DNA of 64,000 bases. Origin: a virus. Shown here piece after piece: positions 6,162 to 44,861 of the stretch. The notes under the pieces were generated by a model, which was not told the DNA's origin, did not search any database, and saw only the letters and a list, made by a program, of their open reading frames with translations. Positions within the stretch are counted from its first letter, which is position 1. Each line of letters begins with the position of its first letter. The position numbers and the translations under genes are program-made. Location of the stretch: the IMG/VR virus record IMGVR_UViG_3300037486_000582, positions 44,578-108,577 of that record. One strand, written 5' to 3'.

Positions 6162-6617
6162 TCAGACGGCGTCCCTGGGCATCGGAGCTCCGCCGGTCGC
6201 GCAGAGCACAACGTCCGTCGCCCCGGCCGCCACGTAGGCCGTGATACGGAACGCGACCAGGTGTCCGTCCACCGGAACCTGCGCGCTGGCGGCCAGCCCG
6301 GTCAAGCCACCGACCGACGTGAGCGTCTTCCAGCGCCGTCCGAGCGGAGCAGCGGCGTCCGGCGTCGCGACCATTGGCAGGACGTCGACGGACCCGCCGT
6401 CCACTGGTGCCCCGGTCGGGCCACGGAAGTCGGCGATCAGCCTGACGCTCAGCCACTCTCGAGCATCGAGGATGACGACGTCGGGGCCGAGCTCACCCGC
6501 GTTCCTGTTGTCCGGTGTCCAGAGACCCGACACCGGAGCGTCCGGCGCGTTCCGCGGAGCCCGGACGTCTGTCTTCGCACTCGGACTGTAGAGCCTACGC
6601 TTCGTGGGAGCTGTCAT
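6162..6617 (-). CDS. hypothetical protein (head module)
   Basis: 151-aa ORF with GAGGAGG RBS between portal and MuF. Confidence 0.6.
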   Translation of the reverse strand: MTAPTKRRLYSPSAKTDVRAPRNAPDAPVSGLWTPDNRNAGELGPDVVILDAREWLSVRLIADFRGPTGAPVDGGSVDVLPMVATPDAAAPLGRRWKTLTSVGGLTGLAASAQVPVDGHLVAFRITAYVAAGATDVVLCATGGAPMPRDAV

Positions 6618-8481
6618 CTGCGTCCTCCTCGTGCCCGAGCGGGTTCGAAGCCGCCCGAGCAGCCGCGGCGTCCAGTGCGGCCAGCGCGCTGTCGCCTTCC
6701 GTGTGCGTCCTGCGTCGGCCGAGGGCGAGCCCTTGGTGCGACAAGTTCACGAGGTCTTGCGCCTCGGCGACGTCGAGCCCGGCGACCGCCGGTGGCATGT
6801 CCTCCGGTGCGCCCTCCACCGGAGGGGCGAAGCCGGCGAGCGTGAGCTGGATCGGCTGCTTCGCCCACGGCAGGTCCAGCGGGTCGAGCTCGTGGCCGAG
6901 GATGTCGCTCGAAAGGTAGCGTGCTTCGTTCGGGGTGATTGCCCCGACCTTCGCCAGATCGAGGATGACAGCCGCCACCCGTTCCGGGTCGCGGGTCTGC
7001 GGCCCGAGCGAGCGGAAGGTCCACATTCGGATGTCGAGCATCGGAAGGATGACCCTGTTCAGCCAGGAGTCGAACTCCTTCCGCTCGGGCTCGAACACCT
7101 GCTCGTCGGCAAAGCGCAAACTCGCGTCGGCCGTGGACTTGTTGAAGTCGCGCACGTCACCGCGGAGCAGCCGGGGCAGGCGGAAGGAGCTGCCGATCTT
7201 GTCCACGTTCCGCTCGTCGTACTTCTGGAACATGGCGTCGCCCTTCTGCACGTCGCCGAGGCGTTCGAACGTGAGCCGCGGGTGCTCGTGCGGCGACATC
7301 GGGTCGCCTTCGTCGTCGGCCTCGATGACCATGATCTTGTGGAAGTTCTCGCGCCCCTTGATGTGGTCGCGGATGAACGTCTCGATCCTGGTCACGCTCT
7401 CCGAGCTGAGCCGCCCGCCGGACACGAGCAGCGCCAGCGGCGGAATGGCCTTGTTGTCGAAGTAGGCGAAGTTGACCTCGTCCGACGCCCGGCTGCCGAG
7501 GACCGCGAGCAGGTTCCCGATCCAGCGCGGGACACCGTAGGGCTCGCCAGTCCTGTGAATGCGGAAGTGGACCATCTCGGTCGCCTGGTGCTCGCGACCG
7601 CGGGTCTGCTCCGCGAAGACCGCCAGGTTCGCATAGATGCGCCCAGTCTCTCTGGAGACGACCCGCGGGTCGCCAAACTGCTTGAACCAGATGATCTTTG
7701 AACCGACCGCCTGGACGTAGCGGCGGAAGAACTTCGGCTGGTAGATGACCTCCCAGCCAAGCCCGAGGTGGACGCGGTCGGGTACCATGACAGGAATCTC
7801 GTCCAGCGCGGTGCAGCGGACGTGTGTCGGCGGCACCCCAACGAAGCGACTCACCTCCCCGACGCGGTTCCGAAGGATCTCCCAGAAGCCGTTGCCGACG
7901 ATCTCAAGGTCCTGTCTCGTGTGGCGGCGAAGCGTCTCGAAACTCCCGTCTGGGTAGACGCCTTCGAAGAACGAGTCGAGCCGCGCCTTCTCGAACCGCG
8001 CTCGGATGCGGAGTGCCTCGACGGTCTTCGCGACCACCTCGTCCGTCGGAAGGTACTGCTCTGGGTCCTTGACCCGGCTCGCCTGTGCCAGCACGTCCGC
8101 GTCGTCCGCCGCGTCTCGGAGGTCGTCGCTCGCTGCCGTCGATGCCTCCGCCGCGCGCACGCGCTCGACCCACATGGCGTCGCGGACCTTCTCCTCCGCC
8201 TCCTCGCCGAACAGGTCGAACCGAGCAGCGAAGCGGTAGCCGAGGCCGTCGATGTTGGTGACGTACGCCTGGACGTTCTGCGGAAGGGCGCTGCTGTTTT
8301 CCCACATCCGCAGAAGGTCGATCGGATTGTACGGCGGTTCGAGGACACCGGCCTCGCGGAAGATGGACTGAAGCTGGTCCGTGTCCTCGCGAATGGAGAC
8401 CGGAGCGTGGACGGCTTGTCCGAGCAGCCGCGCCTTCAGCGTCGCGCGTGGTTCCTTCGGTTCTTCCTGTGCGTCGGCCAT
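6595..8481 (-). CDS. phage portal protein, PBSX/XkdE-like
   Basis: EPPY, DLEIVGNGFWEILRN, EMVHF...YGVPRW, YFDNKAIP, SFRLP and ITPNEAR motifs; follows the terminase. Confidence 0.9.
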   Translation of the reverse strand: MADAQEEPKEPRATLKARLLGQAVHAPVSIREDTDQLQSIFREAGVLEPPYNPIDLLRMWENSSALPQNVQAYVTNIDGLGYRFAARFDLFGEEAEEKVRDAMWVERVRAAEASTAASDDLRDAADDADVLAQASRVKDPEQYLPTDEVVAKTVEALRIRARFEKARLDSFFEGVYPDGSFETLRRHTRQDLEIVGNGFWEILRNRVGEVSRFVGVPPTHVRCTALDEIPVMVPDRVHLGLGWEVIYQPKFFRRYVQAVGSKIIWFKQFGDPRVVSRETGRIYANLAVFAEQTRGREHQATEMVHFRIHRTGEPYGVPRWIGNLLAVLGSRASDEVNFAYFDNKAIPPLALLVSGGRLSSESVTRIETFIRDHIKGRENFHKIMVIEADDEGDPMSPHEHPRLTFERLGDVQKGDAMFQKYDERNVDKIGSSFRLPRLLRGDVRDFNKSTADASLRFADEQVFEPERKEFDSWLNRVILPMLDIRMWTFRSLGPQTRDPERVAAVILDLAKVGAITPNEARYLSSDILGHELDPLDLPWAKQPIQLTLAGFAPPVEGAPEDMPPAVAGLDVAEAQDLVNLSHQGLALGRRRTHTEGDSALAALDAAAARAASNPLGHEEDADDSSHEA

Positions 8482-9260: not shown

Positions 9261-10847
9261 TCATCCGATGGCGCGAACTCCAGACGACGACGATGAAGAC
9301 GCCCGCCGGCCGGTGTCGCGACGGAGTTTCCGCTCGTACATGCGCGCCGCTTCCCGCGCGATCCAGGAGGCCATGAGCCGGTCGCCGGTGTGACCTTGCG
9401 GGTCGTAGGCCAGCATGTCGTCGATCCAGTCGGCGACGCCCCTGGCGACGCGCCGGGAACCGACTTCGCAGGGGATGAGCCACCGGGAAGCCGCCATCTC
9501 CGCGGCGAGGCTCTCGACGCCGTACTCCGGGGACAGCTTGTTGCGGCCCGTGGTGAAAGCGCGGACGCGCATCCCAGGAGCGCGTTCCCTGACCCACTGG
9601 ACGAGGAAGTCCTGAGCAGCGTTGTTCTCCACGACGACCGTCGAGCGGAAGCGTTCGTTCACCGAGACGACCCGGTCGATGATCTCCGGGCCGCTCCACC
9701 GCCCCGCCTGAACCTCCAGCACTTGGCGCATCCCATTTGGCCAGAGCAGCAGCGTGAACAAGGCGCTCTTGCCGGACCCCGGCCGTGCGCTGATCGCGAG
9801 GTCGACGCCGGTGATGGTCATGAAGCCGGCCGGCATCCCGCCCATCTCGAGCAACTCCTCCGTCAGACTCATCTCGGCGGCGAACTCGGGGTCGCGCTCC
9901 GCGATGTCTTGCAGACTGCTGTACGTCGCGAACCCTTCGCCGAGCGCCAGGCACTGCTCGATCCACGACCGCTGGAACCGCGCGGTGCTCTCGTCGCGCG
10001 GCTGGCAGAGCATCTGACGAGAGAACTCGATCGGCCCGAGCACCTGGGTTCGGACGTGCTCGATCCGGTCCAGCGGCCACCGCTCCGGCCAGGCCAGCTT
10101 GCCGTCCTGGTCCAAGACGGGAAACCGCATCGAGTGCCACCCCTGGCGCTCCAAGTTGTGGGCCATGTCCTTCGGGTGCCAAGCGTTCGTCAGGAGGCAG
10201 ACCCACGCACCCTTCGCGAGCCGCGGGAAGGCGGAAGCGCGAATCCACTCCTCGATCTTGTCCCGCTGGTAGTTGGTGCGTGTGTTGTTCTCGGTCAGGA
10301 CGTCGTCGATGATGAGCCCGTCGAGCCGCGCGCCCTGGATGGTTCCTCCCTCCGGCGAGTAGGCTTGCAGGGACGGGTCCTTGATGCCGCCCGGACGCTC
10401 CACTTCCAACGAAACGTCGGTCCAGAGCGTGCCGCGACGAAGGTCTGGGAAGACCTGGTGGAGTATCTGGTTCTCGATGATGTGCTGCTGCGCGGTGCGG
10501 ATGATCTTCTTTGCCTGGCTCTGCGTCGCGGACAGAACTGCGTACCGCCGACGCTGGTCCTTCCCGAGCAGCCAGAGGACGCGGGCGATGGCGAGCTGCT
10601 GTGTCTTTCCGCTCTCGGGGAACGCCCAGATGACCACGTTGCGGTAGCGCTCGATGGCGTAGTGCCAGGCTGCCTGGAAGGGCTTCACCTGGATGTGGTT
10701 CCCCGTCTCCTCGTCCCGGAGGACCATCTCGCAGAACGCGGGACAGTCCCGCCGCGCCAGACGGAGCATCGCCGCCCACGCAAGCTGCGCCTGCTCACCG
10801 ATACCATCCGTCGGCGCGTCGCGCGCCACGCCCGTTCCAATGCCCAT
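9261..10847 (-). CDS. terL: terminase large subunit
   Basis: Walker A AFPESGKT, Walker B GARLDGLIIDD, RNase H-like TGVDLAIS ... TGDRLMASW; upstream of portal. Confidence 0.9.
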   Translation of the reverse strand: MGIGTGVARDAPTDGIGEQAQLAWAAMLRLARRDCPAFCEMVLRDEETGNHIQVKPFQAAWHYAIERYRNVVIWAFPESGKTQQLAIARVLWLLGKDQRRRYAVLSATQSQAKKIIRTAQQHIIENQILHQVFPDLRRGTLWTDVSLEVERPGGIKDPSLQAYSPEGGTIQGARLDGLIIDDVLTENNTRTNYQRDKIEEWIRASAFPRLAKGAWVCLLTNAWHPKDMAHNLERQGWHSMRFPVLDQDGKLAWPERWPLDRIEHVRTQVLGPIEFSRQMLCQPRDESTARFQRSWIEQCLALGEGFATYSSLQDIAERDPEFAAEMSLTEELLEMGGMPAGFMTITGVDLAISARPGSGKSALFTLLLWPNGMRQVLEVQAGRWSGPEIIDRVVSVNERFRSTVVVENNAAQDFLVQWVRERAPGMRVRAFTTGRNKLSPEYGVESLAAEMAASRWLIPCEVGSRRVARGVADWIDDMLAYDPQGHTGDRLMASWIAREAARMYERKLRRDTGRRASSSSSSGVRAIG

Positions 10848-10924
10848 CGGCCCAAGCATACCGCACTGTGACGCGCGCCGCGACCGCAACGGAAGCGGCG
10901 GACGAGCAACGTCCTACAGCCTCC

Positions 10925-11470: not shown

Positions 11471-12349
11471 ATGACGAAGGCGAACGAGAACACGAAGGCG
11501 ATCAAGGTCACGGCGAAGGAGCTCGCGATCCTTCAGGGCATCGTGAGGAGCGAGTTCCAAGACTTCGGGGCCGGCGGCCCCGTCGGCCAGTACGTCTGGT
11601 CATGGAGTGCGACGTCGAACGCGGGCGATGCGATCAAGAGCCAGCGCAGCGCGGGCGGTGTTGTGGCATCCCTGGTCAAGAAGGGTCTCGCGACCCAGAT
11701 GGACGAAGGTCGGGACGCGTGCCTCGCGGTGACCGCGCTCGGCTTTGCCGCCTACCAGGCCAACCTCGCGGTGACCGAGCCCGCCCCGGTTGCCGAGCCC
11801 GCCCCGGTTGCCGAGCCCGCCCCGGTTGCCGAGCCCACCGCCGAGGAGCTGGACGTGATCCGCCGCGCCGTCGAGGACCTCGCCCTGGATGAGCCCGGCA
11901 CGAGCCCCGTCGACGTCCCGCTGTATGCGACGATGACCAGCGCGCTCGCGGCGTCCCTGGCCACGAAGGGCTTGGCCGTCGTGACCGAGGTGCGCGCCCG
12001 GGACGCCTTCATGGCGATTACCCAGCGCGGGTACGACGCCGTCGCGGCGACGGTGCGCGTTGCCGCCGCGGTCCCCGCCGAGGAGCCGGCCCCGGTCGAG
12101 GTCAAGAGCTATGCCGAGCGCCTGGCCGCGATCCTCGGGGCCGGCTGCGCCGTGAACACGAACGGTACCCTTCGCGTCGGCGACGCCGCGCTCGCCAAGC
12201 TCGAGGAGCTTCTGCCCGGTCACGACTACGCGACCAACTTCCCAGAGAGCGGGCTCCTGGAGACCGGGATCAAGATCAACAAGAACAGCATCACCGTCTA
12301 CCCGATCCGGATCGGAACCTTCCTCGTCGCGCTCGGGGACCTCTGCTGA
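11471..12349 (+). CDS. hypothetical early protein (possible wHTH-like repeats; C-terminal domain shared with 18517..19110)
   Basis: AGGAG RBS; AEPAPV tandem linker; AVNTNGTLRVG.AALA.L motif. Confidence 0.7.
   Translation: MTKANENTKAIKVTAKELAILQGIVRSEFQDFGAGGPVGQYVWSWSATSNAGDAIKSQRSAGGVVASLVKKGLATQMDEGRDACLAVTALGFAAYQANLAVTEPAPVAEPAPVAEPAPVAEPTAEELDVIRRAVEDLALDEPGTSPVDVPLYATMTSALAASLATKGLAVVTEVRARDAFMAITQRGYDAVAATVRVAAAVPAEEPAPVEVKSYAERLAAILGAGCAVNTNGTLRVGDAALAKLEELLPGHDYATNFPESGLLETGIKINKNSITVYPIRIGTFLVALGDLC
11775..11836 (+). repeat. 18-bp coding tandem repeat x3 (AEPAPV linker)
   Basis: CCGAGCCCGCCCCGGTTG repeated. Confidence 0.85.
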
Positions 12350-12631: not shown

Positions 12632-13651
12632 CTACTGCCACCCGAGGGCTTGGACCAGAAGGGGTGCCACGACCGCCGGCGAGTGCGCAGCCAGCGTGCG
12701 CCCCGCCCCGTCGGCGAGCACGGCCGTGTCGGAGGCAGAAGGCGGCGAGGACAGGAGCCGGGCGAGCGCCTCCGACGACCCGACCGAAAGGCAGTTGACG
12801 CCCGGGGCAAGCTCGCCACCCGGGCGCAGCCAGCCGTCGTGTACGACCAGAGCCGCGCCCGCGTCCCAGGCCTCAAAGAACGTGTACTGCGTCCCTCCGC
12901 CGTCGTCTCGGATGGTGCTCATGTCGACGACGTACTCGGCCTGCCCCGCGATGAGAAGGGGAGCGTCGGCCGTCTTCGGAAACCGCCCGCGGTAGTACCG
13001 CGCCTCCCAGCCCGGGCAAGCCTTCTCGAGCTTGTGGAAGGCGTACAGCCTGTTGACTGCGCCGTAGATGTGGCAGCGGCCGCGGTCGCCCGGCGGCAGC
13101 GCGTCGAAGGCTGGGACGACAAGGTGCGTCCCCTTGTCGAAGTCGACCCTGGACAGGGTAACCGCCCGCTCGGACCGCGGGTGCTGGCTGCTCACCGCCC
13201 GGCGGACGTAGGGGTGTGGAACGAAGGTAACCCGACTGACACCTCGGCGCCGGACGTTCTCCACGTTCGTCGGCCGGATGACCACGACGCGGCGGCGGTG
13301 CCGCTCGATGCACTCCATGAGCGGCGGGGTCATCTCGGTCGGGTCGTGGAGGATGATGTCGGCCCCGGCACGGAGCAGCGCCTCCGTTGCCTCGGCGTGC
13401 GTCCGCCAGTACGAACAGGTGATGAGTCCCTGTCCCGCCGCCTTCAGGTCGCGGAGCATCGTGTCGAGCGACGTGGAGAAGGCACGGACGCCGTGACTCC
13501 ACGGCTTGTCGCCTCGCGCGTCCCGCTTGGCGAGTCGGTAGAGCATGGGGCAGTGGCCGGTGCGCTCGAGCGCAAGGGCAAGGTGGGCCGTGTAGGACAC
13601 GAAGCCGCCGAACGCCACGTCGGTCAGGTAGAACAGGGGCGCGACCGTCAC
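12632..13651 (-). CDS. glycosyltransferase (GT-B, family 4-like)
   Basis: GG..Y..HL N-terminus, ILHDP, LSRVDFDKG, DGGGTQYTFFEAWDAG(A/C) motifs. Confidence 0.7.
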   Translation of the reverse strand: MTVAPLFYLTDVAFGGFVSYTAHLALALERTGHCPMLYRLAKRDARGDKPWSHGVRAFSTSLDTMLRDLKAAGQGLITCSYWRTHAEATEALLRAGADIILHDPTEMTPPLMECIERHRRRVVVIRPTNVENVRRRGVSRVTFVPHPYVRRAVSSQHPRSERAVTLSRVDFDKGTHLVVPAFDALPPGDRGRCHIYGAVNRLYAFHKLEKACPGWEARYYRGRFPKTADAPLLIAGQAEYVVDMSTIRDDGGGTQYTFFEAWDAGAALVVHDGWLRPGGELAPGVNCLSVGSSEALARLLSSPPSASDTAVLADGAGRTLAAHSPAVVAPLLVQALGWQ

Positions 13652-13662
13652 GGAACCCTCCC

Positions 13663-14934
13663 CTACGCCCGCTCGGCGTTCCAGTAGTAGATCAAGTCGC
13701 CGTTCTCGTCCTTGCCCTCCGGCCGGATGACGCCTTCGAAGTAGCGGTATGGGGAGCGCCCGCGGTTCGGATTGTTCCAGAGCCAGTGCAGGAGGTCGTA
13801 CATGGACTGGTGCCAGATCTTCGACGCGCCTTCCACCGTGCCCCAGTTGAGGACGCGGGCGCGGATGTTCTTGAGCAGCCTCAAGTCCTTCTCGAAGTCG
13901 CTCCAACGGACTGAGCCGTTTCTGCGAGCCAGGACGAGCGCCTCGGTGAACTGGCCTCGGCTGTAGTTCCAGGTCGGGGGCAACCCGCAGCAGGAGCCGT
14001 TCGCGCAGCGCTCCTTGAAGTGGGCGTCCGAGACGTAGAAGCGCAAGCCGACCTCCTTGCACAGCTCCTCCATCCGGTCGATGACGGGCCGCTTCACGTT
14101 CCGGTTGAGCCGCATGTAACCGCGCATCGCCGAGTACCGCTTGTAGAAGGCGTACAGGTCGAAGCCGGCGAGCTTCGACATCTCGTGGAAGTGGAGCCGC
14201 CCGCCCGGGCTGCGCTCCTCCATGCAGAAGTACTCGGTGCTGAGCGCCGTCGCCCCGGCACTGGCCGCGTCACGGATGAGTTGCTCGTAGGTCGCGTCGC
14301 TGATCCCAGGGATGAAGGGGCGTAGCCGAAGGGTCACGCCACCCTTGTTCAGCTTGGCGTACTTCTCCATCGCCCGGAGGCGCTCCATTGGGCTCGGCAC
14401 ACCCTTCTCGACCTTCCGGGCGAGTTCCTGGTCGCCCGTGACGATCGAGATCTTCATGTTCCAGTTGTCCTGACCTCGGAAGATGTCCGTGTACCGCTCG
14501 TCGTCGAGCCACCAGGTCCCCTTCGTGCTGAAGCAGATGGGGTAGTCGAGGTCGCGCCAGAACCGGAGCAGCTCCAACCCAACGCCGTACCGCTTCTCGA
14601 ACGGGCAGAACGGGTCGGACAACCCGCCCCACTGAAGGACCTTCCGCGCCCGGATGAAGTCGGTGAAGCGATGGTCCGTGGTCGGGTCGAGCCACAGCCG
14701 CATGACCCGGTCGACGTTGACGGGGACGGCCTCGTGGCTCCAATACTTGTCCTTGCACTTCCCGACCCCGCGGGAGAACTGCGAGAAGCAGTACAGGCAG
14801 AAGTACCCGCACACGCTGTACTGGTCGAAGGTGACCGGCATCGAGCAGTCGGCGACCTCCGCGGAGCAGCGCGGCGAATCGTAGAACCGCTGAAGCCGTG
14901 CCTTCGGCCGGCCGTCACTCGTTTCCGCTGCCAT
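13663..14934 (-). CDS. radical SAM enzyme (SplB/spore-photoproduct-lyase-like clade)
   Basis: DQYSVCGYFCLYCFS (CxxxCxxC), GGLSDPF, STKG, EKGVPSPMERL, RLRPFIPG. Confidence 0.85.
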   Translation of the reverse strand: MAAETSDGRPKARLQRFYDSPRCSAEVADCSMPVTFDQYSVCGYFCLYCFSQFSRGVGKCKDKYWSHEAVPVNVDRVMRLWLDPTTDHRFTDFIRARKVLQWGGLSDPFCPFEKRYGVGLELLRFWRDLDYPICFSTKGTWWLDDERYTDIFRGQDNWNMKISIVTGDQELARKVEKGVPSPMERLRAMEKYAKLNKGGVTLRLRPFIPGISDATYEQLIRDAASAGATALSTEYFCMEERSPGGRLHFHEMSKLAGFDLYAFYKRYSAMRGYMRLNRNVKRPVIDRMEELCKEVGLRFYVSDAHFKERCANGSCCGLPPTWNYSRGQFTEALVLARRNGSVRWSDFEKDLRLLKNIRARVLNWGTVEGASKIWHQSMYDLLHWLWNNPNRGRSPYRYFEGVIRPEGKDENGDLIYYWNAERA

Positions 14935-15676
14935 GCTGCGTCCCAGCGCCACGCCCGGCGACCTCGTCGGCCATCCGCTGAAGCTCCTGCACAGGGTAGA
15001 TGATGCGGTTCGTGCGGAAGGGCACGCCGAAGCACCTCTCCAGCCACGTCCGCTCCGCCTCGCCCTTGAAGACGATGATGAGCCGTTCGCTCTGGAGTGA
15101 GTCGTCCTCGGCATCGAGCGGCGGAAGCGGGTCCGGGCGGAGCCCGGAGTCCTGCGTCCGAGACAGCCGACCATAGTCGATGCCTCCGGGCGCGTTGGGC
15201 TGGTCGGGCACCTGGAAGGTGACCGGGGCGAGCAACTCGTCGATGTTCAGGTCCGGGATGCGGGTGCTCTCGATGATCGCCTGGACCTCGTCCTCGCTCA
15301 TCCCCATCCCGCTGAAGAACGTGGTCTCGGGGTTCCAGTCGGCATAGCGGCTGTTGAGCTGGAGCAGCTTCGCGGCTGCGTCTTGACGGTCCTTCGCCCG
15401 GACCTCGACGTAGACGATGGGCGGGATGGTCCAGCCTTCCTGCTCCAGCGACCGCAGCGCGGCACACGTCTGGTGTCCGTCGAGGATCAGCGGCGAGCCC
15501 TCCTCGTCGCGCCACACGAACTTCGGCACGAACTGGCCGTAGCTCGTGAGACTGGACTTCAGCTTGGCGAGCGCCTCCTCGTCCAGCGGCTTCTTCAGGT
15601 CGCCCTGGAAGTCGCGGAGTTCCGTGTACGGAATGGTCGGTAGGCTGTGTGGGTTGTCGATCTGCAGCGTAGGCAT
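14915..15676 (-). CDS. ParB/Srx N-terminal domain protein
   Basis: LKSSLTSYGQFVP ... ILDGHQT ... LQLNSRY. Confidence 0.75.
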   Translation of the reverse strand: MPTLQIDNPHSLPTIPYTELRDFQGDLKKPLDEEALAKLKSSLTSYGQFVPKFVWRDEEGSPLILDGHQTCAALRSLEQEGWTIPPIVYVEVRAKDRQDAAAKLLQLNSRYADWNPETTFFSGMGMSEDEVQAIIESTRIPDLNIDELLAPVTFQVPDQPNAPGGIDYGRLSRTQDSGLRPDPLPPLDAEDDSLQSERLIIVFKGEAERTWLERCFGVPFRTNRIIYPVQELQRMADEVAGRGAGTQHGSGNE

Positions 15677-15755
15677 GGGCTCTGTTCCTTCCCCTTATCC
15701 GCCCTCGCGGGCGGGAACGGGGTTCATCATAGAACAGGAAGCGCGGGCGGGGAAG

Positions 15756-16019
15756 CTAGGCGGTGAAGGTCTGGAAGGAGCAGGCGGGGCGGCTGGAGTC
15801 GACGCGGAAGCCTTCCGCGCCGTACTGCGCGCACTGCCACCACCCGGTCAGTGCCGAGTTGCGGCGAAGCGAAGCGCCGCACTGAGGGCAGCACCCAGTC
15901 GCCACGACCGTCTGAGCCTCGGCCTGGAGCCGGGCGATGTACGCGGCGTGGCACTTGTTGCAGCGAGTCGCGTACCGGCTCATCACACGTCCACAGGCAC
16001 AACGATTCCTGGTTGCCAT
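15756..16019 (-). CDS. small Cys-rich Zn-finger protein
   Basis: CACG, CNKC, CPQCG; GAGGAGG RBS. Confidence 0.65.
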   Translation of the reverse strand: MATRNRCACGRVMSRYATRCNKCHAAYIARLQAEAQTVVATGCCPQCGASLRRNSALTGWWQCAQYGAEGFRVDSSRPACSFQTFTA

Positions 16020-16020
16020 C

Positions 16021-16431
16021 TCAGACCTCCTCGTCCATTCCCTGTTCGCGCTTCTGCTCGTCGGTCATCGCCGCCGCGCCGCAGGCGCAGCAGACCTCGC
16101 CGTCCCACCAGCGTTCGCAGTGCGTATCGCCCGGCCGGGCAGGGCACCGCTCCTCGGGCTCCCACGCGCTGTCCGGGTCGTCGTCCGCGGCCGCCGCCGC
16201 GTCAGCCTCGGCGGCGGTCTTCTGGGCGTGCGGCCCGTCGGCCTCGAGCGGCAGGCAGTCGGTGAAGAGGGCGAGCAGATCGCCGCTGACGACCAGGTGG
16301 CCGTCGGCGTCCACGCTCGCGTCGCGGTCCAACTCGGCAATGTCGGCGGGAGCGTCGGTGTCGCATCCGACGATCTCTGCCACGCATGCGATCTCCCTCG
16401 GGTCCGTCACGGTCAGCTCGTTTCGCGTCAT
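16021..16431 (-). CDS. hypothetical early protein
   Basis: ATG 16431 directly behind promoter cassette B. Confidence 0.65.
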   Translation of the reverse strand: MTRNELTVTDPREIACVAEIVGCDTDAPADIAELDRDASVDADGHLVVSGDLLALFTDCLPLEADGPHAQKTAAEADAAAAADDDPDSAWEPEERCPARPGDTHCERWWDGEVCCACGAAAMTDEQKREQGMDEEV

Positions 16432-16435
16432 CTTC

Positions 16436-16565
16436 AGCCTCCACCACCCTTTATAGGAAACCCGCGGGTTTCCCACAACACATCCCGGGACGATTATCTG
16501 GAGGCTTGCCAGTTCGCCCTGTGTTTCCGCAGGATTATTAGGAGTGATCCCCCGGACGATTTCTG
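16436..16565 (-). promoter_or_regulatory. early promoter cassette copy B (TTGTGG-17-TATAAA)
   Basis: -10 at 16450-16455, -35 at 16473-16478; spacer contains palindrome GGAAACCCGCGGGTTTCC. Confidence 0.8.
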
Positions 16566-18516: not shown

Positions 18517-19110
18517 CTACCAGCACTCCTCGGGGTCCAGCTCCGTCGTCGACTCGCCCGTGGAGCGCGGCCCGATGTAGTCGCCGTAGAAGTGATCGCC
18601 GTTGGCCGGCTTCACGGTGATGACCGTCCGGCGGTTCCAGTACTCGCGGCGGTCCTCGATCGACACGATGATGCCGTCCTGCTCGATGTCGCTCTTGAAC
18701 CCGACCAGGTCGCCGACGCCCACGACGCGCGCCCCGCGGTCGATGATGACGGTCGGACCGGTCGAGGCGGCGGGCGTCGCCTTCGCGCCCGGGAACGCCT
18801 TCGCGGTCGTCTTCGGCGCCTTCGGAACGGAGAAGCCCGGGGCGGGCGTCTCGGAGCGGATCACGACCGGGGCGTCCTTCATGGCGAGCGCGGCGACGTA
18901 GGGGAACGAGGTCGGGTCGATGGTGACGCTGTTGGTGTTCACGCGCACGCCGACGTAGTCGGCATAGCCCGGGGCGAGCTCGGCCAGGCGCGCGAGCGCC
19001 GCGTTGCCGACCCGGAGGGTGCCGTTCGTGTTCACGGCTGTCCCGCTCGCTCCCAGGAGTTCAGCCAGAACCGCCGCCGCCTTCGCCGTCTTCTCGTTTC
19101 GCTTCGCCAT
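18517..19110 (-). CDS. hypothetical early protein (SH3/KOW-like C-terminus; N-terminal domain shared with 11471..12349)
   Basis: Behind promoter cassette C; VGDLVGFKSDIEQDGII motif. Confidence 0.7.
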   Translation of the reverse strand: MAKRNEKTAKAAAVLAELLGASGTAVNTNGTLRVGNAALARLAELAPGYADYVGVRVNTNSVTIDPTSFPYVAALAMKDAPVVIRSETPAPGFSVPKAPKTTAKAFPGAKATPAASTGPTVIIDRGARVVGVGDLVGFKSDIEQDGIIVSIEDRREYWNRRTVITVKPANGDHFYGDYIGPRSTGESTTELDPEECW

Positions 19111-19114
19111 TCTC

Positions 19115-19243
19115 AGCCTCCACCACCATTTATAGGAAACCCGCCGGTTTCCCGCAAGACATCCGGGGCCGATTGTTGGAACCGCCCTGGTTTCGCAAAT
19201 GCTTTCGGCAACTTGTGTGGGTGATCCCCAGGACGATTTATCG
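19115..19243 (-). promoter_or_regulatory. early promoter cassette copy C (TTGCGG-17-TATAAA)
   Basis: -10 at 19129-19134, -35 at 19152-19157. Confidence 0.8.
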
Positions 19244-21524: not shown

Positions 21525-21923
21525 TCAAGCCACCAGGGCGACAGCCGCCCGGGTCGTGTTCCACATCGCCAGCCCGGCCGCGGCGCTCGGCATCCGGCGG
21601 CGGCCCGCGTTCCTTACGCTCTTCTTCACGCCCTCCGCGTTGACACCGCGGGCGGTCAGGTGCGCGACGAACTCGCTGGTGGTCCGGTCCTGCTTCGCGC
21701 TGTTGCAGGACAAACAGGCGGTGACCAGGTTCGACGGGTCGTTGGTACCGCCGAGCTCGACGGGGACGATGTGATCCAGGGTGGCGTTGCCGCCCGCGCC
21801 CGGGGTCACATGGCCGCTGCAGTACTGGCAGCAGTAGGCATCGCGAGCGTAGATGCGCGACCGGGTCGAACGCCTGATCCACTTGGAGCCCTGTCCCGCC
21901 TTCCTCGTCCCGCCTCTCGTCAT
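21525..21923 (-). CDS. HNH endonuclease
   Basis: RDAYCCQYC...ATLDHIVPVELGGTNDPSNLVTACLSCNSAK; first gene behind promoter cassette D. Confidence 0.9.
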   Translation of the reverse strand: MTRGGTRKAGQGSKWIRRSTRSRIYARDAYCCQYCSGHVTPGAGGNATLDHIVPVELGGTNDPSNLVTACLSCNSAKQDRTTSEFVAHLTARGVNAEGVKKSVRNAGRRRMPSAAAGLAMWNTTRAAVALVA

Positions 21924-21928
21924 CCCGT

Positions 21929-22056
21929 CACCTCCACCACCCTTTATAGGAAACCCGCGGGTTTCCCACAACACATCCCGGGACGATTATCAGAGCGCCC
22001 GCCCAATTCGGCTTGAGTCACGAAGGACTACGCGGGGAGATCCCCCGGACGATTTC
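21929..22056 (-). promoter_or_regulatory. early promoter cassette copy D (TTGTGG-17-TATAAA)
   Basis: -10 at 21943-21948, -35 at 21966-21971; ~60 bp near-identical to copy B. Confidence 0.8.
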
Positions 22057-22701: not shown

Positions 22702-23391
22702 TCATTGCGCCGGCGCGTCCTGTGTCCTGTCGTACAGGTCACGGAGCAACCGCGCGTCAGCGTCCCGGAACCGCCCGGGCGCGAGCCCGCCCTGGAACGC
22801 CATGTCCGGGGCGAGCGGATACATCACCGACCCGCTGTCGTCGGGGTCGTGGGCAAGCCCAAGTACATGCCCGAGCTCGTGGACCAGAACCCGGTGTGCC
22901 GTCCCGTCGTCGGGGACGTTCCGCATCCGGACAGTGGCCCTGGCCACGAAGCCGCTTCCGACCTCGCGGGTGTGGAAGCAGCCGGCGTCGGCGTCCGCCG
23001 CCTCCGCAGGAACACCGAAGACCAGGGCAACGCGCGGTTCGGCGCTGACCGGACAGAAGGCCAGGGCGTCGAAGCCGAGCTGCATGTTGACCTCGCGGAC
23101 CGCATACTCGGCACGACGCATGTCCGCCGACGTCAGCTCCGCGCTCTCGTTGCGGACCCCAAGGCACAGCGGGAAGGCGCTCCTGCCCCAACGGACCTCT
23201 TCCGGCGACGCACAGACGCCGACGGCGCCCGAGCCTTCAACCTGGTCGGCGTACTGCGCGACCGTTCCGCTCCAGCACACACGAAGCAGGAGCGGCTCGG
23301 TGTGCCGCGGAACGAACCACACGAGCAGCACGACGGCGGTCACGGCGATGGCCGCGAAGGCGGCGACGGATACGATCCACTTCCAGCGCAT
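22702..23391 (-). CDS. membrane-anchored/secreted matrixin-like (metzincin) zinc metalloprotease
   Basis: N-terminal hydrophobic helix; HELGHVLGLAH and Met-turn SVMYP. Confidence 0.85.
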   Translation of the reverse strand: MRWKWIVSVAAFAAIAVTAVVLLVWFVPRHTEPLLLRVCWSGTVAQYADQVEGSGAVGVCASPEEVRWGRSAFPLCLGVRNESAELTSADMRRAEYAVREVNMQLGFDALAFCPVSAEPRVALVFGVPAEAADADAGCFHTREVGSGFVARATVRMRNVPDDGTAHRVLVHELGHVLGLAHDPDDSGSVMYPLAPDMAFQGGLAPGRFRDADARLLRDLYDRTQDAPAQ

Positions 23392-23409
23392 GGCGTACCT
23401 CCGAGGGTT

Positions 23410-24507
23410 CTAGTCTACGCCACCGCCGGGCGGGTCGCGCCAGTAGGCGGGCGGGTGGCAGAGTCGCGGCCAGGCTGCTCCGACCGGCCCGCCGGCCGTT
23501 GCGCGCACCGCGACTTCTGCGTCGTCCGGGTAAGGCTTCGGCATCTTCGGAAGGAGGAAGGCGCGCGTGCCGGCGTCCTTGTCGCACCAACCACACGGCG
23601 CGAACCGACGATCCTTCGACGCGAGCAGGCGCCGAGCAGCCATGAACCGCCAGCCCCACCAGATATCCGTCAGCGTTTCGTCCCGATCAGCCACGCCGCA
23701 GACGTAATCGCCGCGCCAGTCGATGCAGCAGAGCCGCACCTCGCCGTTCCAGGTGACGGCGAGCTCGCGGAAGGGGTTCGAGCAGTTCTTCCGGAGCGGA
23801 GCTTCTGGAACGGGGCGAGCCGGGCTCGCCCCGGCGTGGTTGAGCACCTTGCGGCTGGCCCGCTCCCGGTCGCGAAGTCCCAGGTCGTCCATGAGCACGA
23901 CGAGCCGGCGGGCGAAGCGCCTGTGGTTCCCCCACGGCGACCACCCGCTGGGGGCGAGGTCAGCGTAGAAGTCGCGTACGGTGATGCCGACGCCAAGCGT
24001 TGCTGCTTCGGCGCGGAGGTCGTCCCTGTCCTCACGGTAGGTGTCGATGATGACGTAGTCGAGTCCGGCGTCGAACAGCCCGACGATCTTCTCTCGCATC
24101 CGGCCCCGGAGAAGCTGGCCGTTCGTGGTCATCTGGAGCTGCGCCTTCGGGAGCAGCGCCCTGAAGGTCGCCACCACCTCGACCGCCTGTCGGTTGGCAA
24201 GTGGTTCACCGTGCATCGCGAACTCGTACCGCGCCCACGGGGCAAGGGCGGCTGCCTGTTCAGCCACGAGCAGCGCCGTGTCGAGCGTCATCGGCTTGAA
24301 GCCGCCAGGCTTCGTGCGGATTGCGTTCAGTCCGCAGAAGGAACAGAGCCGGGTACACCCTTCGGTCAGCTCGATCTGGACGGACCAGGGACGCTGGACC
24401 AGAGCAGCCGCCGGGTCAGCAGCGATGGCGTCTGCAGGCGCGTGTGGCGGCGGCGGCTGCCGCCACTTGTCGCGAACGTACCTCCGCTTCACCCGGGGCT
24501 CGGTCAT
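23410..24507 (-). CDS. radical SAM enzyme with SPASM/twitch domain
   Basis: [23 protein letters not shown]; CSNPF...[11 protein letters not shown]...CGWCD. Confidence 0.9.
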
Positions 24508-27271: not shown

Positions 27272-28045
27272 TCAGCCTCCTGTCCCCGTTATTGCGTCGA
27301 CCGGCTCCGCGTCTGCCTCGTCATCGAACAGGCCGTCCAAGAGGCTCAACTGCCGCGTGTCCACGGGACCACGTTCCAGCCGCGAACGCATCTCGAGTAT
27401 ACCCTTGGGCGAGAAGCGAGCGAATGACGAAAGGTCTGCCACGCCGAGGTCATCCCAGAGCTCCCCGTACACGAGGACCATGGATGGCTGAATCGTGTCG
27501 ACCATCGCCCGGTACCCCTCGCAGAACCGACGTCGCACATCCTCCCCGACCCTGATACCTACCGTCGAAACGCAGACCGTCGAACGTCGCGCGATCCCGG
27601 CAAAGCAGAAGTCGAACGTACGCCAGTCGCCCCAGTTGACCGTGGGCACCACGACCGCCCCGCGAGCAGCCCAATAGGCGCCGAGCCACCGCGAGCGGTA
27701 GGTGTTCCAGAGCTGAAGCGCGGGCGGCCACTCGACGTACATGCTGAAGTCCGGCGTCAGCACGCCCTGCGCGCCAAGGACGTAGCGGTCGTACCTCCCG
27801 GGATTGTTCCAGACCGACTCGAATCGGTAGTCGTCGAAGAAGAAGTGCCAACAGCCGCCAGCCACTTCGTCGTCGTCGAGCTTGTTCCGGTTCACCCACG
27901 GAAGCAGCACGTCCGGCACCCAATCGACCGGGCCGGCGACATCTGGGAGGCCGAACCTGTTCGCGCTCCGATACAAGGACGTCGCGTGGAGCGGGTCCCA
28001 GTTGCCGGGGAGGCACTTCCAGTCCTTGACGTTCGGAATGCCCAT
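27272..28045 (-). CDS. DUF4417-family protein
   Basis: HFFFDDYRFESVWNNP, LTPDFSMY, QLWNTYRSRW, VVPTVNW, FDFCFAGI, VSTVG, LVYG. Confidence 0.85.
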   Translation of the reverse strand: MGIPNVKDWKCLPGNWDPLHATSLYRSANRFGLPDVAGPVDWVPDVLLPWVNRNKLDDDEVAGGCWHFFFDDYRFESVWNNPGRYDRYVLGAQGVLTPDFSMYVEWPPALQLWNTYRSRWLGAYWAARGAVVVPTVNWGDWRTFDFCFAGIARRSTVCVSTVGIRVGEDVRRRFCEGYRAMVDTIQPSMVLVYGELWDDLGVADLSSFARFSPKGILEMRSRLERGPVDTRQLSLLDGLFDDEADAEPVDAITGTGG

Positions 28046-28067
28046 GGCCTTCGTTTCTACCACGCCG

Positions 28068-28091
28068 GTCATTGAGCGTCTGCTCAATGAC
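28068..28091. promoter_or_regulatory. back-to-back pair of GCTCAATGAC elements (palindrome), divergent promoter candidate
   Basis: GTCATTGAGC-GTCT-GCTCAATGAC. Confidence 0.65.
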
Positions 28092-28097
28092 GTGGCC

Positions 28098-28526
28098 GTG
28101 ACGTTGCTACCGCTGCTGGACGACAAGCTCCCGGTGCTCCGCCGGCCGCATGAGCGCCTGGCCTCGGCGGACTTCATCGCCCTGTTCAGCGATGAAGATG
28201 CCGCTGCCATCCGGCTCGGAGAACGTGGGCGCATTCGCGTTCACGGCGTCGGGCACACATCCTGTCGGATCACGGTGATGCTGCGCGGACAGCGCCGTAT
28301 CGCGCTCCGCGCCGAGGTCGTGCGCGTTGCGCTCGTTGTCGGACTGGTCGAGATCGCCACGTCCTTCGGTTGGGACGTGGCGTACTCCGGTGGAATCGAG
28401 TCGGTGACGCGGATAAACGGGCTCGGGATGATCAAGCACCGTCCGGCGGTGGCCCTTGGGGATCTTGAGGTACGGAACCCCGGCGCTCCAGCACCGCGGA
28501 GACGAAGGCCCACGGCGGGCAGTTGA
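28098..28526 (+). CDS. hypothetical protein, probably leaderless
   Basis: GTG 6 nt after plus-strand GCTCAATGAC; fills a gap with no credible minus-strand gene. Confidence 0.5.
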   Translation: MTLLPLLDDKLPVLRRPHERLASADFIALFSDEDAAAIRLGERGRIRVHGVGHTSCRITVMLRGQRRIALRAEVVRVALVVGLVEIATSFGWDVAYSGGIESVTRINGLGMIKHRPAVALGDLEVRNPGAPAPRRRRPTAGS

Positions 28527-39444: not shown

Positions 39445-40584
39445 ATGGCACGACTGACGGAAGCGGAGATGCTCGGAGCGCTGGACGCCGGGCGGGTGGT
39501 ATTCCTGCTCGAGCCGCCGCATCGGCGGAAGCACATCCCGATGGGACTCGCGCGGATCGCGGGTTATCTACGGCTGGCTGGGAAGGCGCCGCGGTACGGG
39601 CGGTGGCTGAACCGTGGCGACGCGGACGTGGACCTGGTCTGCGTGGGGTCGTTGTGGACGCAGGACTTGACCATCCTCATCCAGTCCATCGACCGGGCGA
39701 GGCGAGTCGCGCCGCGAGCTCGCATCGTGGTTGGCGGGGTACTGGCGTCGCTCATGCCCGACCTTGTGGCCGGGGCGACCGGGGCCGACGTCTTCTGCGG
39801 CACCTCCCCGGTACTGGACGCGGTCCGTCCCGACTACTCGCTCGCCTGGCGGCCCGACCCCAAGTTCGAGACGGCCGCCTTCGTCTACACGACCCGCGGC
39901 TGCCCAAACTCCTGCCCATACTGCGTGGTCGGACGCATCGAGCGGCCCCGCTACGTCGTCGAGGGGTGGCGTGAGCAGATGGTCGTCCGCGGCAAGGACA
40001 CGGTCCTCGTCAGCGACAACAACCTGCTCGCGTGGCCCGACGCCCACTGGACCGCCGTGCTGGACGCCGTGGAAGCGTCGGGACTCAAGGCGTGCTTCGA
40101 CAACGGCTTCGACTGCCACCGGGTCGACGACGACGTGGCCGCACGGCTGGCCCGGCTTCGGTACGGGCTGTCGGGGCTCCGCATGAGCTTCGACCGGGTC
40201 GGCGACGACGGCGTGTTCCAGTCGGCGGCCCGCCGGCTCATCAAGGCGGGGTGCCACGTCGAGGACATGATGGCGTTCGTGCTCTACAACTTCCACGACA
40301 CGCCGGCGGAGGCGCACTACAAGCTGATGGAGGTCCTCCGGCTCGGCATCCGCCCGTACCCGCAGCAGTACGTCCCGCTGGACAAGATCGAACGGGCCGG
40401 CAAGCACGTGGGCCGTTACTGGACGGACCGCGCGCTCGGCGCCTTCCGCTTCTACTGGCTGATGCGGGGCATCCACAACAAGGAGACGCTCCCCGCCTGG
40501 CTCCGGCGGGCAGGGGCGCGCCAGTGCCGGCTCGGGCCTCGCGACCTGGACATCCTCATGCCGCTCACCGACTGGGTCCGATAG
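39445..40584 (+). CDS. B12-binding-domain radical SAM enzyme
   Basis: PMGLARIAGYL, IVVGGVLASL, TTRGCPNSCPYC, DNNLL, FDNGFD. Confidence 0.85.
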   Translation: MARLTEAEMLGALDAGRVVFLLEPPHRRKHIPMGLARIAGYLRLAGKAPRYGRWLNRGDADVDLVCVGSLWTQDLTILIQSIDRARRVAPRARIVVGGVLASLMPDLVAGATGADVFCGTSPVLDAVRPDYSLAWRPDPKFETAAFVYTTRGCPNSCPYCVVGRIERPRYVVEGWREQMVVRGKDTVLVSDNNLLAWPDAHWTAVLDAVEASGLKACFDNGFDCHRVDDDVAARLARLRYGLSGLRMSFDRVGDDGVFQSAARRLIKAGCHVEDMMAFVLYNFHDTPAEAHYKLMEVLRLGIRPYPQQYVPLDKIERAGKHVGRYWTDRALGAFRFYWLMRGIHNKETLPAWLRRAGARQCRLGPRDLDILMPLTDWVR

Positions 40585-44343: not shown

Positions 44344-44861
44344 TGAGCGCCCGCGCACCGAGCGCGGCCCGCCCAGTCCTCGAACACGACCACGACCGAG
44401 TAGAACCGTGCCTTGTCGAGCGGCACCCCATCCGGCCGCACGTACCGCAGCTTGTTGGGCAGGAACTCCAAGTGGAACGCGGGGTACACGAGGACGAGCC
44501 CACCGGCCGGAGGCTGATCCTGAGCGACGATGAACCTTCGCCACCAGACCTTCCCCGTCTTCGCAGGCAGAAGGGCGACAACGCGGCGAGCCCGCCCGGT
44601 CAGCACCTCCGCCCGCGCCTTCGTCACCCATCGCTGCTCGGCCGTTCCGTAGGGGCAGTTCATGTAGCAGACGCCGGCCCACGGCTGCGTCAGCCCGTCG
44701 TCGCGGGCGGTGAAGTAGGTCGGACAGACGTGGAGCGCGTCGCTGGCGGCCACGTCCAGGTCGAACGCGCCGCCAGCCCACCGAACAGCCAGCGACTTCG
44801 CCAGCGCGGGCGGCGTGCCGAACTCCGGGTCGGTCAGCGCCCAGCCGGCCGGCCGCCTCAT
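44340..44861 (-). CDS. phage DNA N6-adenine methyltransferase (Dam, PF05869-like), NCPY variant
   Basis: TPP, FDLDVAAS, FTARDDGLTQPW, YMNCPY, WVTKA, VVALLPAKT. Confidence 0.8.
   Translation of the reverse strand: MRRPAGWALTDPEFGTPPALAKSLAVRWAGGAFDLDVAASDALHVCPTYFTARDDGLTQPWAGVCYMNCPYGTAEQRWVTKARAEVLTGRARRVVALLPAKTGKVWWRRFIVAQDQPPAGGLVLVYPAFHLEFLPNKLRYVRPDGVPLDKARFYSVVVVFEDWAGRARCAGAQ

Follow-up and report, generated by a model that had tools for sequence, protein, structure and literature searches.

A ParB-like, radical SAM and glycosyltransferase gene trio of an uncultured phage: a candidate oxygen-independent DNA hypermodification module

How could a phage attach sugars to the bases of its DNA if it carries no recognisable enzyme to give these bases the hydroxyl that the sugar needs? 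The question is raised by three adjoining genes, encoding a ParB-like protein, a radical S-adenosylmethionine (SAM) enzyme and a glycosyltransferase (GT), of a ~109-kb uncultured phage (IMG/VR virus record IMGVR_UViG_3300037486_000582, 108,577 bp, 100% complete according to CheckV). The last 64 kb of this record (64,000 nucleotides, record positions 44,578 to 108,577, GC ~69%) is the stretch analysed here and is called the window; positions refer to it unless another locus is named. To our knowledge, the known routes to hydroxymethylpyrimidines in DNA are a thymidylate-synthase-type enzyme acting before replication and an O2-dependent TET/JBP dioxygenase acting after it. The original prediction, made from the letters of the window, was that the radical SAM enzyme activates a base without oxygen and that the GT then glycosylates it. 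Our comparison of genomes supports this idea, as far as sequences can, by the exchange of radical SAM and TET/JBP genes in one genomic slot, the absence of TET and hydroxymethylase, natural gene fusions and the anaerobic hosts of the relatives.

The three genes run head to tail on the minus strand and are as tightly linked as had been claimed, all coordinates being borne out. The gene of the ParB-like protein (P0001, 253 aa, 14915-15676) comes first, followed by that of the radical SAM enzyme (P0002, 423 aa, 13663-14934), whose first 20 nt, beginning with its ATG, are shared with the end of the ParB gene, and by that of the GT (P0003, 339 aa, 12632-13651), whose GTG start lies 11 nt past the radical SAM stop. 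Genes of the window were called by their third-position GC (GC3), which is 0.89 for these three, typical of real genes in a 69% GC genome; nearly all genes of the window are on the minus strand.

Neither a hydroxymethylase nor a TET/JBP enzyme had been visible in the window, and this absence extends to the whole 108,577-bp record, where no match at E≤1 was found to PF00303, PF12851, PF18724, PF00145 or PF18748. Another 27 virus records bearing the radical SAM gene, of which 19 reach a completeness of 90% or more, likewise lack both PF00303 and PF12851, and the same search, as a positive control, found TET in five of five records with a ParB-TET-GT arrangement. Since the genome lacks a C5-cytosine methyltransferase, thymine is favoured over 5-methylcytosine (5mC) as the target. 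A 133-aa plus-strand gene with a weak AAA_33 match was considered as a 5-hydroxymethyldeoxyuridine (5-hmdU) kinase and rejected, as the hidden Markov model (HMM) of the kinase family and PF18748 match nowhere in the genome.

What stands in the place of the dioxygenase is best seen from gene neighbourhoods, which were compared for 80 of 325 IMG/VR loci and 39 cellular-genome loci with the radical SAM gene, and for 80 of 336 IMG/VR loci with the GT (family A2). A TET/JBP gene (PF12851, 2.5e-24 to 1e-6) lies directly upstream of the GT in 44/80 GT loci, preceded in 34 of the 44 by the same ParB family, most of the others being cut by contig ends. The proposed check of neighbourhood co-occurrence thus sets ParB-TET/JBP-GT in 34/80 GT loci against ParB-radical SAM-GT in the window, in locus L100 (65% GC) and in loci L091 and L092 (52% GC): either a radical SAM or a TET/JBP gene fills a single slot flanked by the same ParB and GT families. 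The ParB family is present in all 52 radical SAM loci with at least 4 kb of upstream sequence, TET in none of the 80 IMG/VR radical SAM loci (0/80), and the large terminase gene terL follows the radical SAM gene within 3 kb in 52/57 and 33/33 loci, at a median gap of ~580 nt. The GT family is not the only one to follow the pair, as locus L009 has ParB and radical SAM genes, then another GT-B and a GT2. A rarity of GT and radical SAM genes occurring together had been expected to count against the idea, and numerically they are indeed rare together (3/80 GT loci); the pattern, however, is one of radical SAM genes taking the place of TET in a fixed slot, and this supports the idea. A TET match inside the radical SAM gene of L100 was an artefact, caused by the inclusion of that reading frame in the TET HMM, and was gone after the HMM was rebuilt.

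The same exchange can be followed in the tree of the ParB family, where the label of the partner (radical SAM or TET) changes at least five times, compared with ~27 times for shuffled labels, and where ParBs of opposite partners form well-supported pairings: that of L086 (TET) with that of L100 (radical SAM), that of L009 (radical SAM) with those of L142, L109 and L122 (TET), and that of L091 (radical SAM) with those of L130 and L108 (TET). As the tree comes from a quick search and the ParB of the window is a long branch in it, we draw on nothing in it but how often the partner changes and which pairs are supported.

The radical SAM gene has variable company. The genes between the two are MetK, an AADT-like protein, a P-loop kinase and a GNAT in one set of loci, a 355-aa protein, a cytidylyltransferase and a short radical SAM paralog in a second, and the kinase alone in a third; the P-loop kinase family of these cassettes matches M6 gp54, a 5-hmdU DNA kinase, at 5e-11. 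A 7-deazaguanine (QueCDE) cluster, also considered for the cassettes of the relatives, was given up when Pfam returned MetK, AADT-like protein, P-loop kinase and GNAT. The short paralog (~260-280 aa, PF04055 2.9e-14; e.g., L019 7211-8011 and L022 5610-6446) is encoded immediately ahead of the 414-aa enzyme, or close to it, in the cassettes of the cytidylyltransferase type and in some others.

In several relatives the radical SAM enzyme is physically joined to enzymes of hydroxymethyl-base chemistry. One frame of L200 (contig of a Victivallis vadensis metagenome-assembled genome, 1739-3688) encodes a radical SAM part (residues 16-425) followed by a 5-hmdU DNA kinase domain (residues 463-605; PF18748, 49 bits, over the cut-off), and in L022 (7233-9329) and L027 the radical SAM enzyme carries, fused at its N-terminal end, a domain of a TET-associated glycosyltransferase (TAGT; PF20691, 35.7 bits, over the cut-off). 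PF20691 is found in 8 of 17 long database homologs of the enzyme. Proteins P0249 and P0252-P0258 are among these natural fusions; P0251 joins the radical SAM enzyme to an FkbM methyltransferase, and other long homologs carry inteins (PF14528, PF14890).

As to the enzyme itself, its sequence has the CxxxCxxC motif of radical SAM proteins (C42/C46/C49), invariant in 24 aligned homologs. Library matches are otherwise weak: PF04055 is hit at 1.8e-4 (22.2 bits, under the gathering cut-off of 29.5), though many homologs carry a precomputed match to it, and the SplB-like NCBIfam models PA0069/Rv2578c are hit at 1e-15 with scores of 57 and 50 bits, far below their membership cut-offs of 360 and 430. 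For this reason we built families for the three proteins. That of the radical SAM enzyme holds more than 2,391 database proteins of ~414 aa and ~55% identity, from contigs of 28-69% GC; its relatives on viral contigs were found by an alignment-based query, a single-protein query against these contigs giving none. The nearest database relatives, a 90%-identical radical SAM enzyme and an 81%-identical GT, appear to be encoded together on one 6,867-bp contig, and two more contigs (87,785 bp and 14,424 bp) appear among the matches to both proteins. Neither the region nor the radical SAM and GT proteins matched any of 50,697 cultured phage records in DNA and protein searches, and the two families are so far known solely from uncultured phages and prophages.

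The AlphaFold2 model of the enzyme (mean predicted local distance difference test, pLDDT, 87) has the partial TIM-barrel radical SAM fold, with Z of 14-20 to many solved radical SAM enzymes, and a sequence search against the PDB gave nothing at E≤1. The closest solved fold is that of spore photoproduct lyase (SPL), which is the top Foldseek match (E 2e-7) and aligns by VIA-align over 262 residues with a Z of 19.8 and a root-mean-square deviation of 3.0, the next family reaching 15.8. With SPL SplB (PDB 4fhc and related) the enzyme has in common the CxxxCxxC radical SAM core and, in SPL, a chemistry that acts on DNA through a thymine-methyl radical. In contrast, identity to SPL is only 14-18%, the ~120-residue C-terminal part (residues 304-423) lies outside the SPL match, and SPL works in a repair context, whereas the enzyme here has an obligate ParB partner and the setting of phage hypermodification. 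The C-terminal domain is specific to the family and carries the motif CxNGSCCG, whose cysteines C310, C315 and C316 are, together with C30, also invariant; these extra cysteines suggest a second cluster and a non-canonical chemistry.

The GT is likewise weakly recognised by Pfam (Glyco_trans_1_2, 1.5e-4, 22.2 bits, under the cut-off of 25), several of its homologs carrying a precomputed PF13524 match. Its AlphaFold2 model (pLDDT 96) is a GT-B fold of the GT4-like kind that matches HepE, GlgM, MshA, WaaG and PimA (E 1e-12 to 1e-9, TM ~0.7), and its viral matches include GTs of Bacillus phage SP-15 and proteins named DNA alpha-GT; T4 beta-glucosyltransferase (BGT, GT63) is absent among the Foldseek PDB matches listed. 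GTs associated with phage 5-methylpyrimidine dioxygenases (5mYOX) match in the PDB both T4 beta-GT and cellular GT-B enzymes such as PglH (Pyle et al., Cell Rep 2024; bioRxiv 10.1101/2023.12.21.572611), and the GT of the window resembles them in its GT-B fold and in its place directly after the putative base-activating enzyme, that of theirs being a base oxidase; the likeness is one of fold and position, and the partner is here a radical SAM enzyme instead. P0003 is predicted to be a DNA hydroxymethyl-base glycosyltransferase.

The ParB-like protein matches PHROG ParB families at 1.8e-6, and the HMM of the ParB family adjacent to the radical SAM genes matches it at 2e-11. The alignment of this family (A3) matches the N-terminal domains of Noc/ParB/Spo0J structures at 1e-17, and its members consist of an N-terminal domain of the ParB/Srx nucleotide-binding type and a conserved C-terminal beta-alpha module, without a helix-turn-helix (HTH). 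One subclass of phage thymine dioxygenases is activated on double-stranded DNA by a ParB homolog built of the same domains (O'Toole et al., PNAS 2026, PMC13229309), and by analogy P0001 is predicted to activate the radical SAM enzyme or to target it to DNA.

The analogy goes beyond ParB. Phage thymine dioxygenases are surrounded by P-loop kinases, AADTs and GNATs (kinases and AADTs in the case of the ParB-dependent subclass), and the clusters of that subclass carry P-loop kinases, AADTs, GTs and terminases, few of them with a C5-methyltransferase (PMC13229309). The loci studied here resemble the ParB-dependent 5mYOX (TET/JBP clade C1) clusters in several respects: their ParB joins an N-terminal nucleotide-binding domain to a C-terminal one and lacks an HTH, their GTs belong to one family, their tailoring genes are of like kinds (P-loop 5-hmdU kinase, AADT, GNAT, GT), the terminase is a neighbour, and the action is presumed to be post-replicative. 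They differ from them in that the Fe(II)/2-oxoglutarate dioxygenase is missing from the whole genome, its slot being taken by an SPL-like radical SAM enzyme of no relation to it, and in that the cellular-genome relatives of this enzyme are almost all from anaerobes. Radical SAM enzymes are not mentioned in PMC13229309, and we found no paper pairing them with 5mYOX, 5-hydroxymethyluracil (5-hmU) or ParB in phages.

The hosts of the radical SAM family were surveyed from its cellular-genome loci. The 39 loci come almost exclusively from strict anaerobes of gut and rumen, including Segatella copri, Prevotella, Phocaeicola and other Bacteroidales, Victivallales, Clostridia, Faecalibacterium and a Methanomethylophilaceae archaeon. 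This dominance of anaerobes is in keeping with an enzyme that needs no oxygen and replaces an O2-dependent one. One locus, L187, lies on the complete chromosome of Segatella copri HDE04 (NZ_CP152346.1:1934309-1947541), in a region that is probably a prophage and carries ParB, kinase, radical SAM and terL genes, and it offers an experimental handle.

Taken as a whole, this makes us highly confident that the ParB-radical SAM-GT trio is a DNA hypermodification module. The more specific role, in which the radical SAM enzyme would oxidise thymine in DNA and the GT would glycosylate the product, seems likely to us from the genomic context, and with a little less assurance still we lean towards ParB and the radical SAM enzyme together being an oxygen-independent thymine (5-methylpyrimidine) hydroxylase on DNA, an anaerobic counterpart of TET/JBP. 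Such pairs of oxygen-independent and oxygen-dependent enzymes are familiar from HemN/HemF and BchE/AcsF. The system is probably one of post-replicative, ParB-assisted pyrimidine hypermodification with a non-homologous, oxygen-independent first enzyme.

We infer every chemical step that follows, from the substrate base, the product and the source of the oxygen to the sugar and the role of ParB. After replication, ParB would help the radical SAM enzyme reach thymine in double-stranded phage DNA, as with the ParB-dependent thymine dioxygenases, and a 5'-deoxyadenosyl radical would abstract hydrogen from thymine at its 5-methyl group, giving the same radical species as in the SPL reaction. The allylic radical would then be oxidised, perhaps via a second cluster on the extra conserved cysteines, and the oxidised intermediate captured by water, yielding 5-hmU or an equivalent activated base without O2. 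Finally, the GT-B enzyme would move a sugar from a host nucleotide-sugar onto the hydroxyl.

Several points weigh against this interpretation. We found no literature precedent for the anaerobic hydroxylation of a DNA base by a radical SAM enzyme, and M6 gp53, the only characterised phage radical SAM enzyme acting on modified DNA, is a tailoring isomerase and not a first step (PMC8989533). The phage of the window, with its 69% GC and unassigned host, does not match the gut anaerobes prevailing in the radical SAM family; its ParB is at most 27% identical to the others and is without the NPR and GHxR arginine motifs that most of them have; and between the module and terL there are, in this phage, two plus-strand genes. 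The support is also one of guilt by association, and the product could differ from 5-hmU.

The first of two alternatives that we rate about equally, both of them improbable, follows directly from gp53. The radical SAM enzyme might be a late tailoring enzyme that rearranges an attached group, the hydroxymethyl base itself coming from an enzyme not recognised by our searches. M6 gp53, which isomerises N-alpha-glycinylthymidine (Lee et al., NAR 2021, PMC8989533), and SP10 gp185 are SPL-like radical SAM enzymes of thymidine hypermodification clusters (PMC8989533, PMC5889632), so gp53 shares with the enzyme of the window's family an action, here predicted, on the DNA bases of a phage and a place beside a 5-hmdU kinase; hhalign relates the two over the core only (87% probability over 172 columns), and a kinase and an AADT accompany many radical SAM relatives. 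However, the HMM of the family (A1) matches nothing in M6, gp53 included, and the gene next to gp53 is that of the PLP (pyridoxal phosphate) decarboxylase gp52. M6-like phages, moreover, possess a gene for a dUMP hydroxymethyl transferase, which in many cases lies close to the modification cluster (PMC5889632), whereas the radical SAM phages have neither hydroxymethylase nor TET in the 27 records. The window also holds no amino-acid adduct pathway to supply a substrate for isomerisation, and a late tailoring role sits badly with a radical SAM gene that is the most conserved and constant of its cassettes, while the tailoring sets vary around it (kinase/AADT/GNAT, cytidylyltransferase, three kinds of GT), and that fills the slot of TET and is fused to TAGT.

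In the second alternative, ParB and the radical SAM enzyme would still prime DNA for the GT, by another chemistry or on another base: host-methylated 5mC could be the substrate, or an electrophilic 5-methylene could be trapped without a free hydroxyl. Phage 5mYOX enzymes do oxidise both thymine and 5mC (PMC13229309, PMC8256090), and the possible second cluster on C30, C310, C315 and C316 and the 120 C-terminal residues without an SPL counterpart would suit an unusual reaction. Against it stands the lack of a C5-methyltransferase in the genome; the fusion to a 5-hmdU DNA kinase and the GT families that otherwise follow TET argue for a hydroxymethyl product. That the three genes form no single pathway, the radical SAM enzyme being a DNA repair lyase, ParB a partition or packaging protein and the GT an enzyme for virion proteins or the host envelope, is very hard to believe, even though members of the radical SAM family are labelled 'DNA repair photolyase' at the Joint Genome Institute (JGI), the Pfam scores of all three proteins stay under the curated cut-offs and phage GT-B enzymes that glycosylate virions exist, since the ParB-radical SAM pairing is obligate, the GT directly follows TET in so many loci, the radical SAM enzyme is fused to DNA kinase and TAGT, and the trio is found again in phages that differ in GC (52%, 65% and 69%).

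The TATGAT hexamer reported upstream of ParB is present, on the minus strand at 15726-15731, within the 79-nt gap before the gene and followed by a CCGCCC-GCGA-GGGCGG hairpin and a ribosome-binding site, but a scan for the sigma-70 consensus called no promoter there. Further upstream, a promoter/operator-like cassette of ~70 nt (16426-16495, minus strand), consisting of the palindrome GGAAACCCGCGGGTTTCC and a ribosome-binding site, stands at the start of a gene for a 151-aa protein (16021-16476, minus strand, GC3 0.88) without Pfam or PHROG matches. This is the first gene after the cassette, and its stop is overlapped by the ATG of a gene for an 87-aa, Cys-rich, zinc-ribbon-like protein (15756-16019, minus strand) without a Pfam match. 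Since the cassette precedes these two genes, which run into the gap before ParB, the transcription unit may begin at the cassette and be five genes long. A repeat search found three copies of the cassette (family D1: 16426-16495, 19105-19174 and 21919-21988), with 84-87% identity and each starting a minus-strand gene, and it is probably a shared promoter/operator.

On the other side of the trio lies terL (9261-10889, minus strand; PHROG 38 1.5e-56, Pfam Terminase_6N), 1742 nt from the GT stop, in agreement with the ~1.8 kb given before. Coupling of the modification to packaging is possible and rests solely on the conserved adjacency to terL. One of the intervening plus-strand genes (11471-12349, 292 aa) has tandem 18-nt repeats at 11769-11839 that encode PAPVAE units. 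The portal gene (6595-8307) encodes a protein that shares no more than 30-34% identity with the portals of cultured phages of Rhizobium, Rhodobacter and Streptomyces, and no tRNAs were found in the phage; with so distant a portal and no tRNAs, its host is not assignable.

The window encodes two more radical SAM-type proteins, and three such enzymes in a single phage are unusual. One has a SPASM domain (23410-24507, minus strand; PF04055 2e-10, SPASM 9e-9) and adjoins a metallopeptidase-like gene (22702-23391, minus strand; Peptidase_M10 3.6e-6), the two looking like a peptide-maturase pair (22702-24507), just below a block of DUF4417 and MGGRG-tagged genes. The other (39445-40584, plus strand) has a B12-binding domain (PF02310 4.8e-8) and weak matches to B12-binding radical SAM methyltransferases. 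The DUF4417 protein of the window (27272-28234, minus strand; 9.6e-49) is matched at 1.2e-7 by the HMM of a 261-aa family encoded just upstream of ParB in radical SAM cassettes of the L019 type (L019 3577-4362), and a link between DUF4417 and such modification systems is possible.

In conclusion, about 65% of phage GT contigs are without a recognised base-modifying partner (Pyle et al., bioRxiv 10.1101/2023.12.21.572611), and an oxygen-independent thymine hydroxylase, if that is what ParB and the radical SAM enzyme are, would account for some of these clusters. It would be a new reaction type for radical SAM enzymology, might yield an oxygen-free tool to oxidise thymine or 5mC in DNA, and would widen the role of ParB-like activators to a second, unrelated enzyme class. 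It would also explain how DNA hypermodification takes place in phages of strict anaerobes, such as those of Segatella, Prevotella and other gut and rumen bacteria, feeding glycosylation in the phage studied here, and kinase and amino-acid transferase pathways in thousands of phages of anaerobes.

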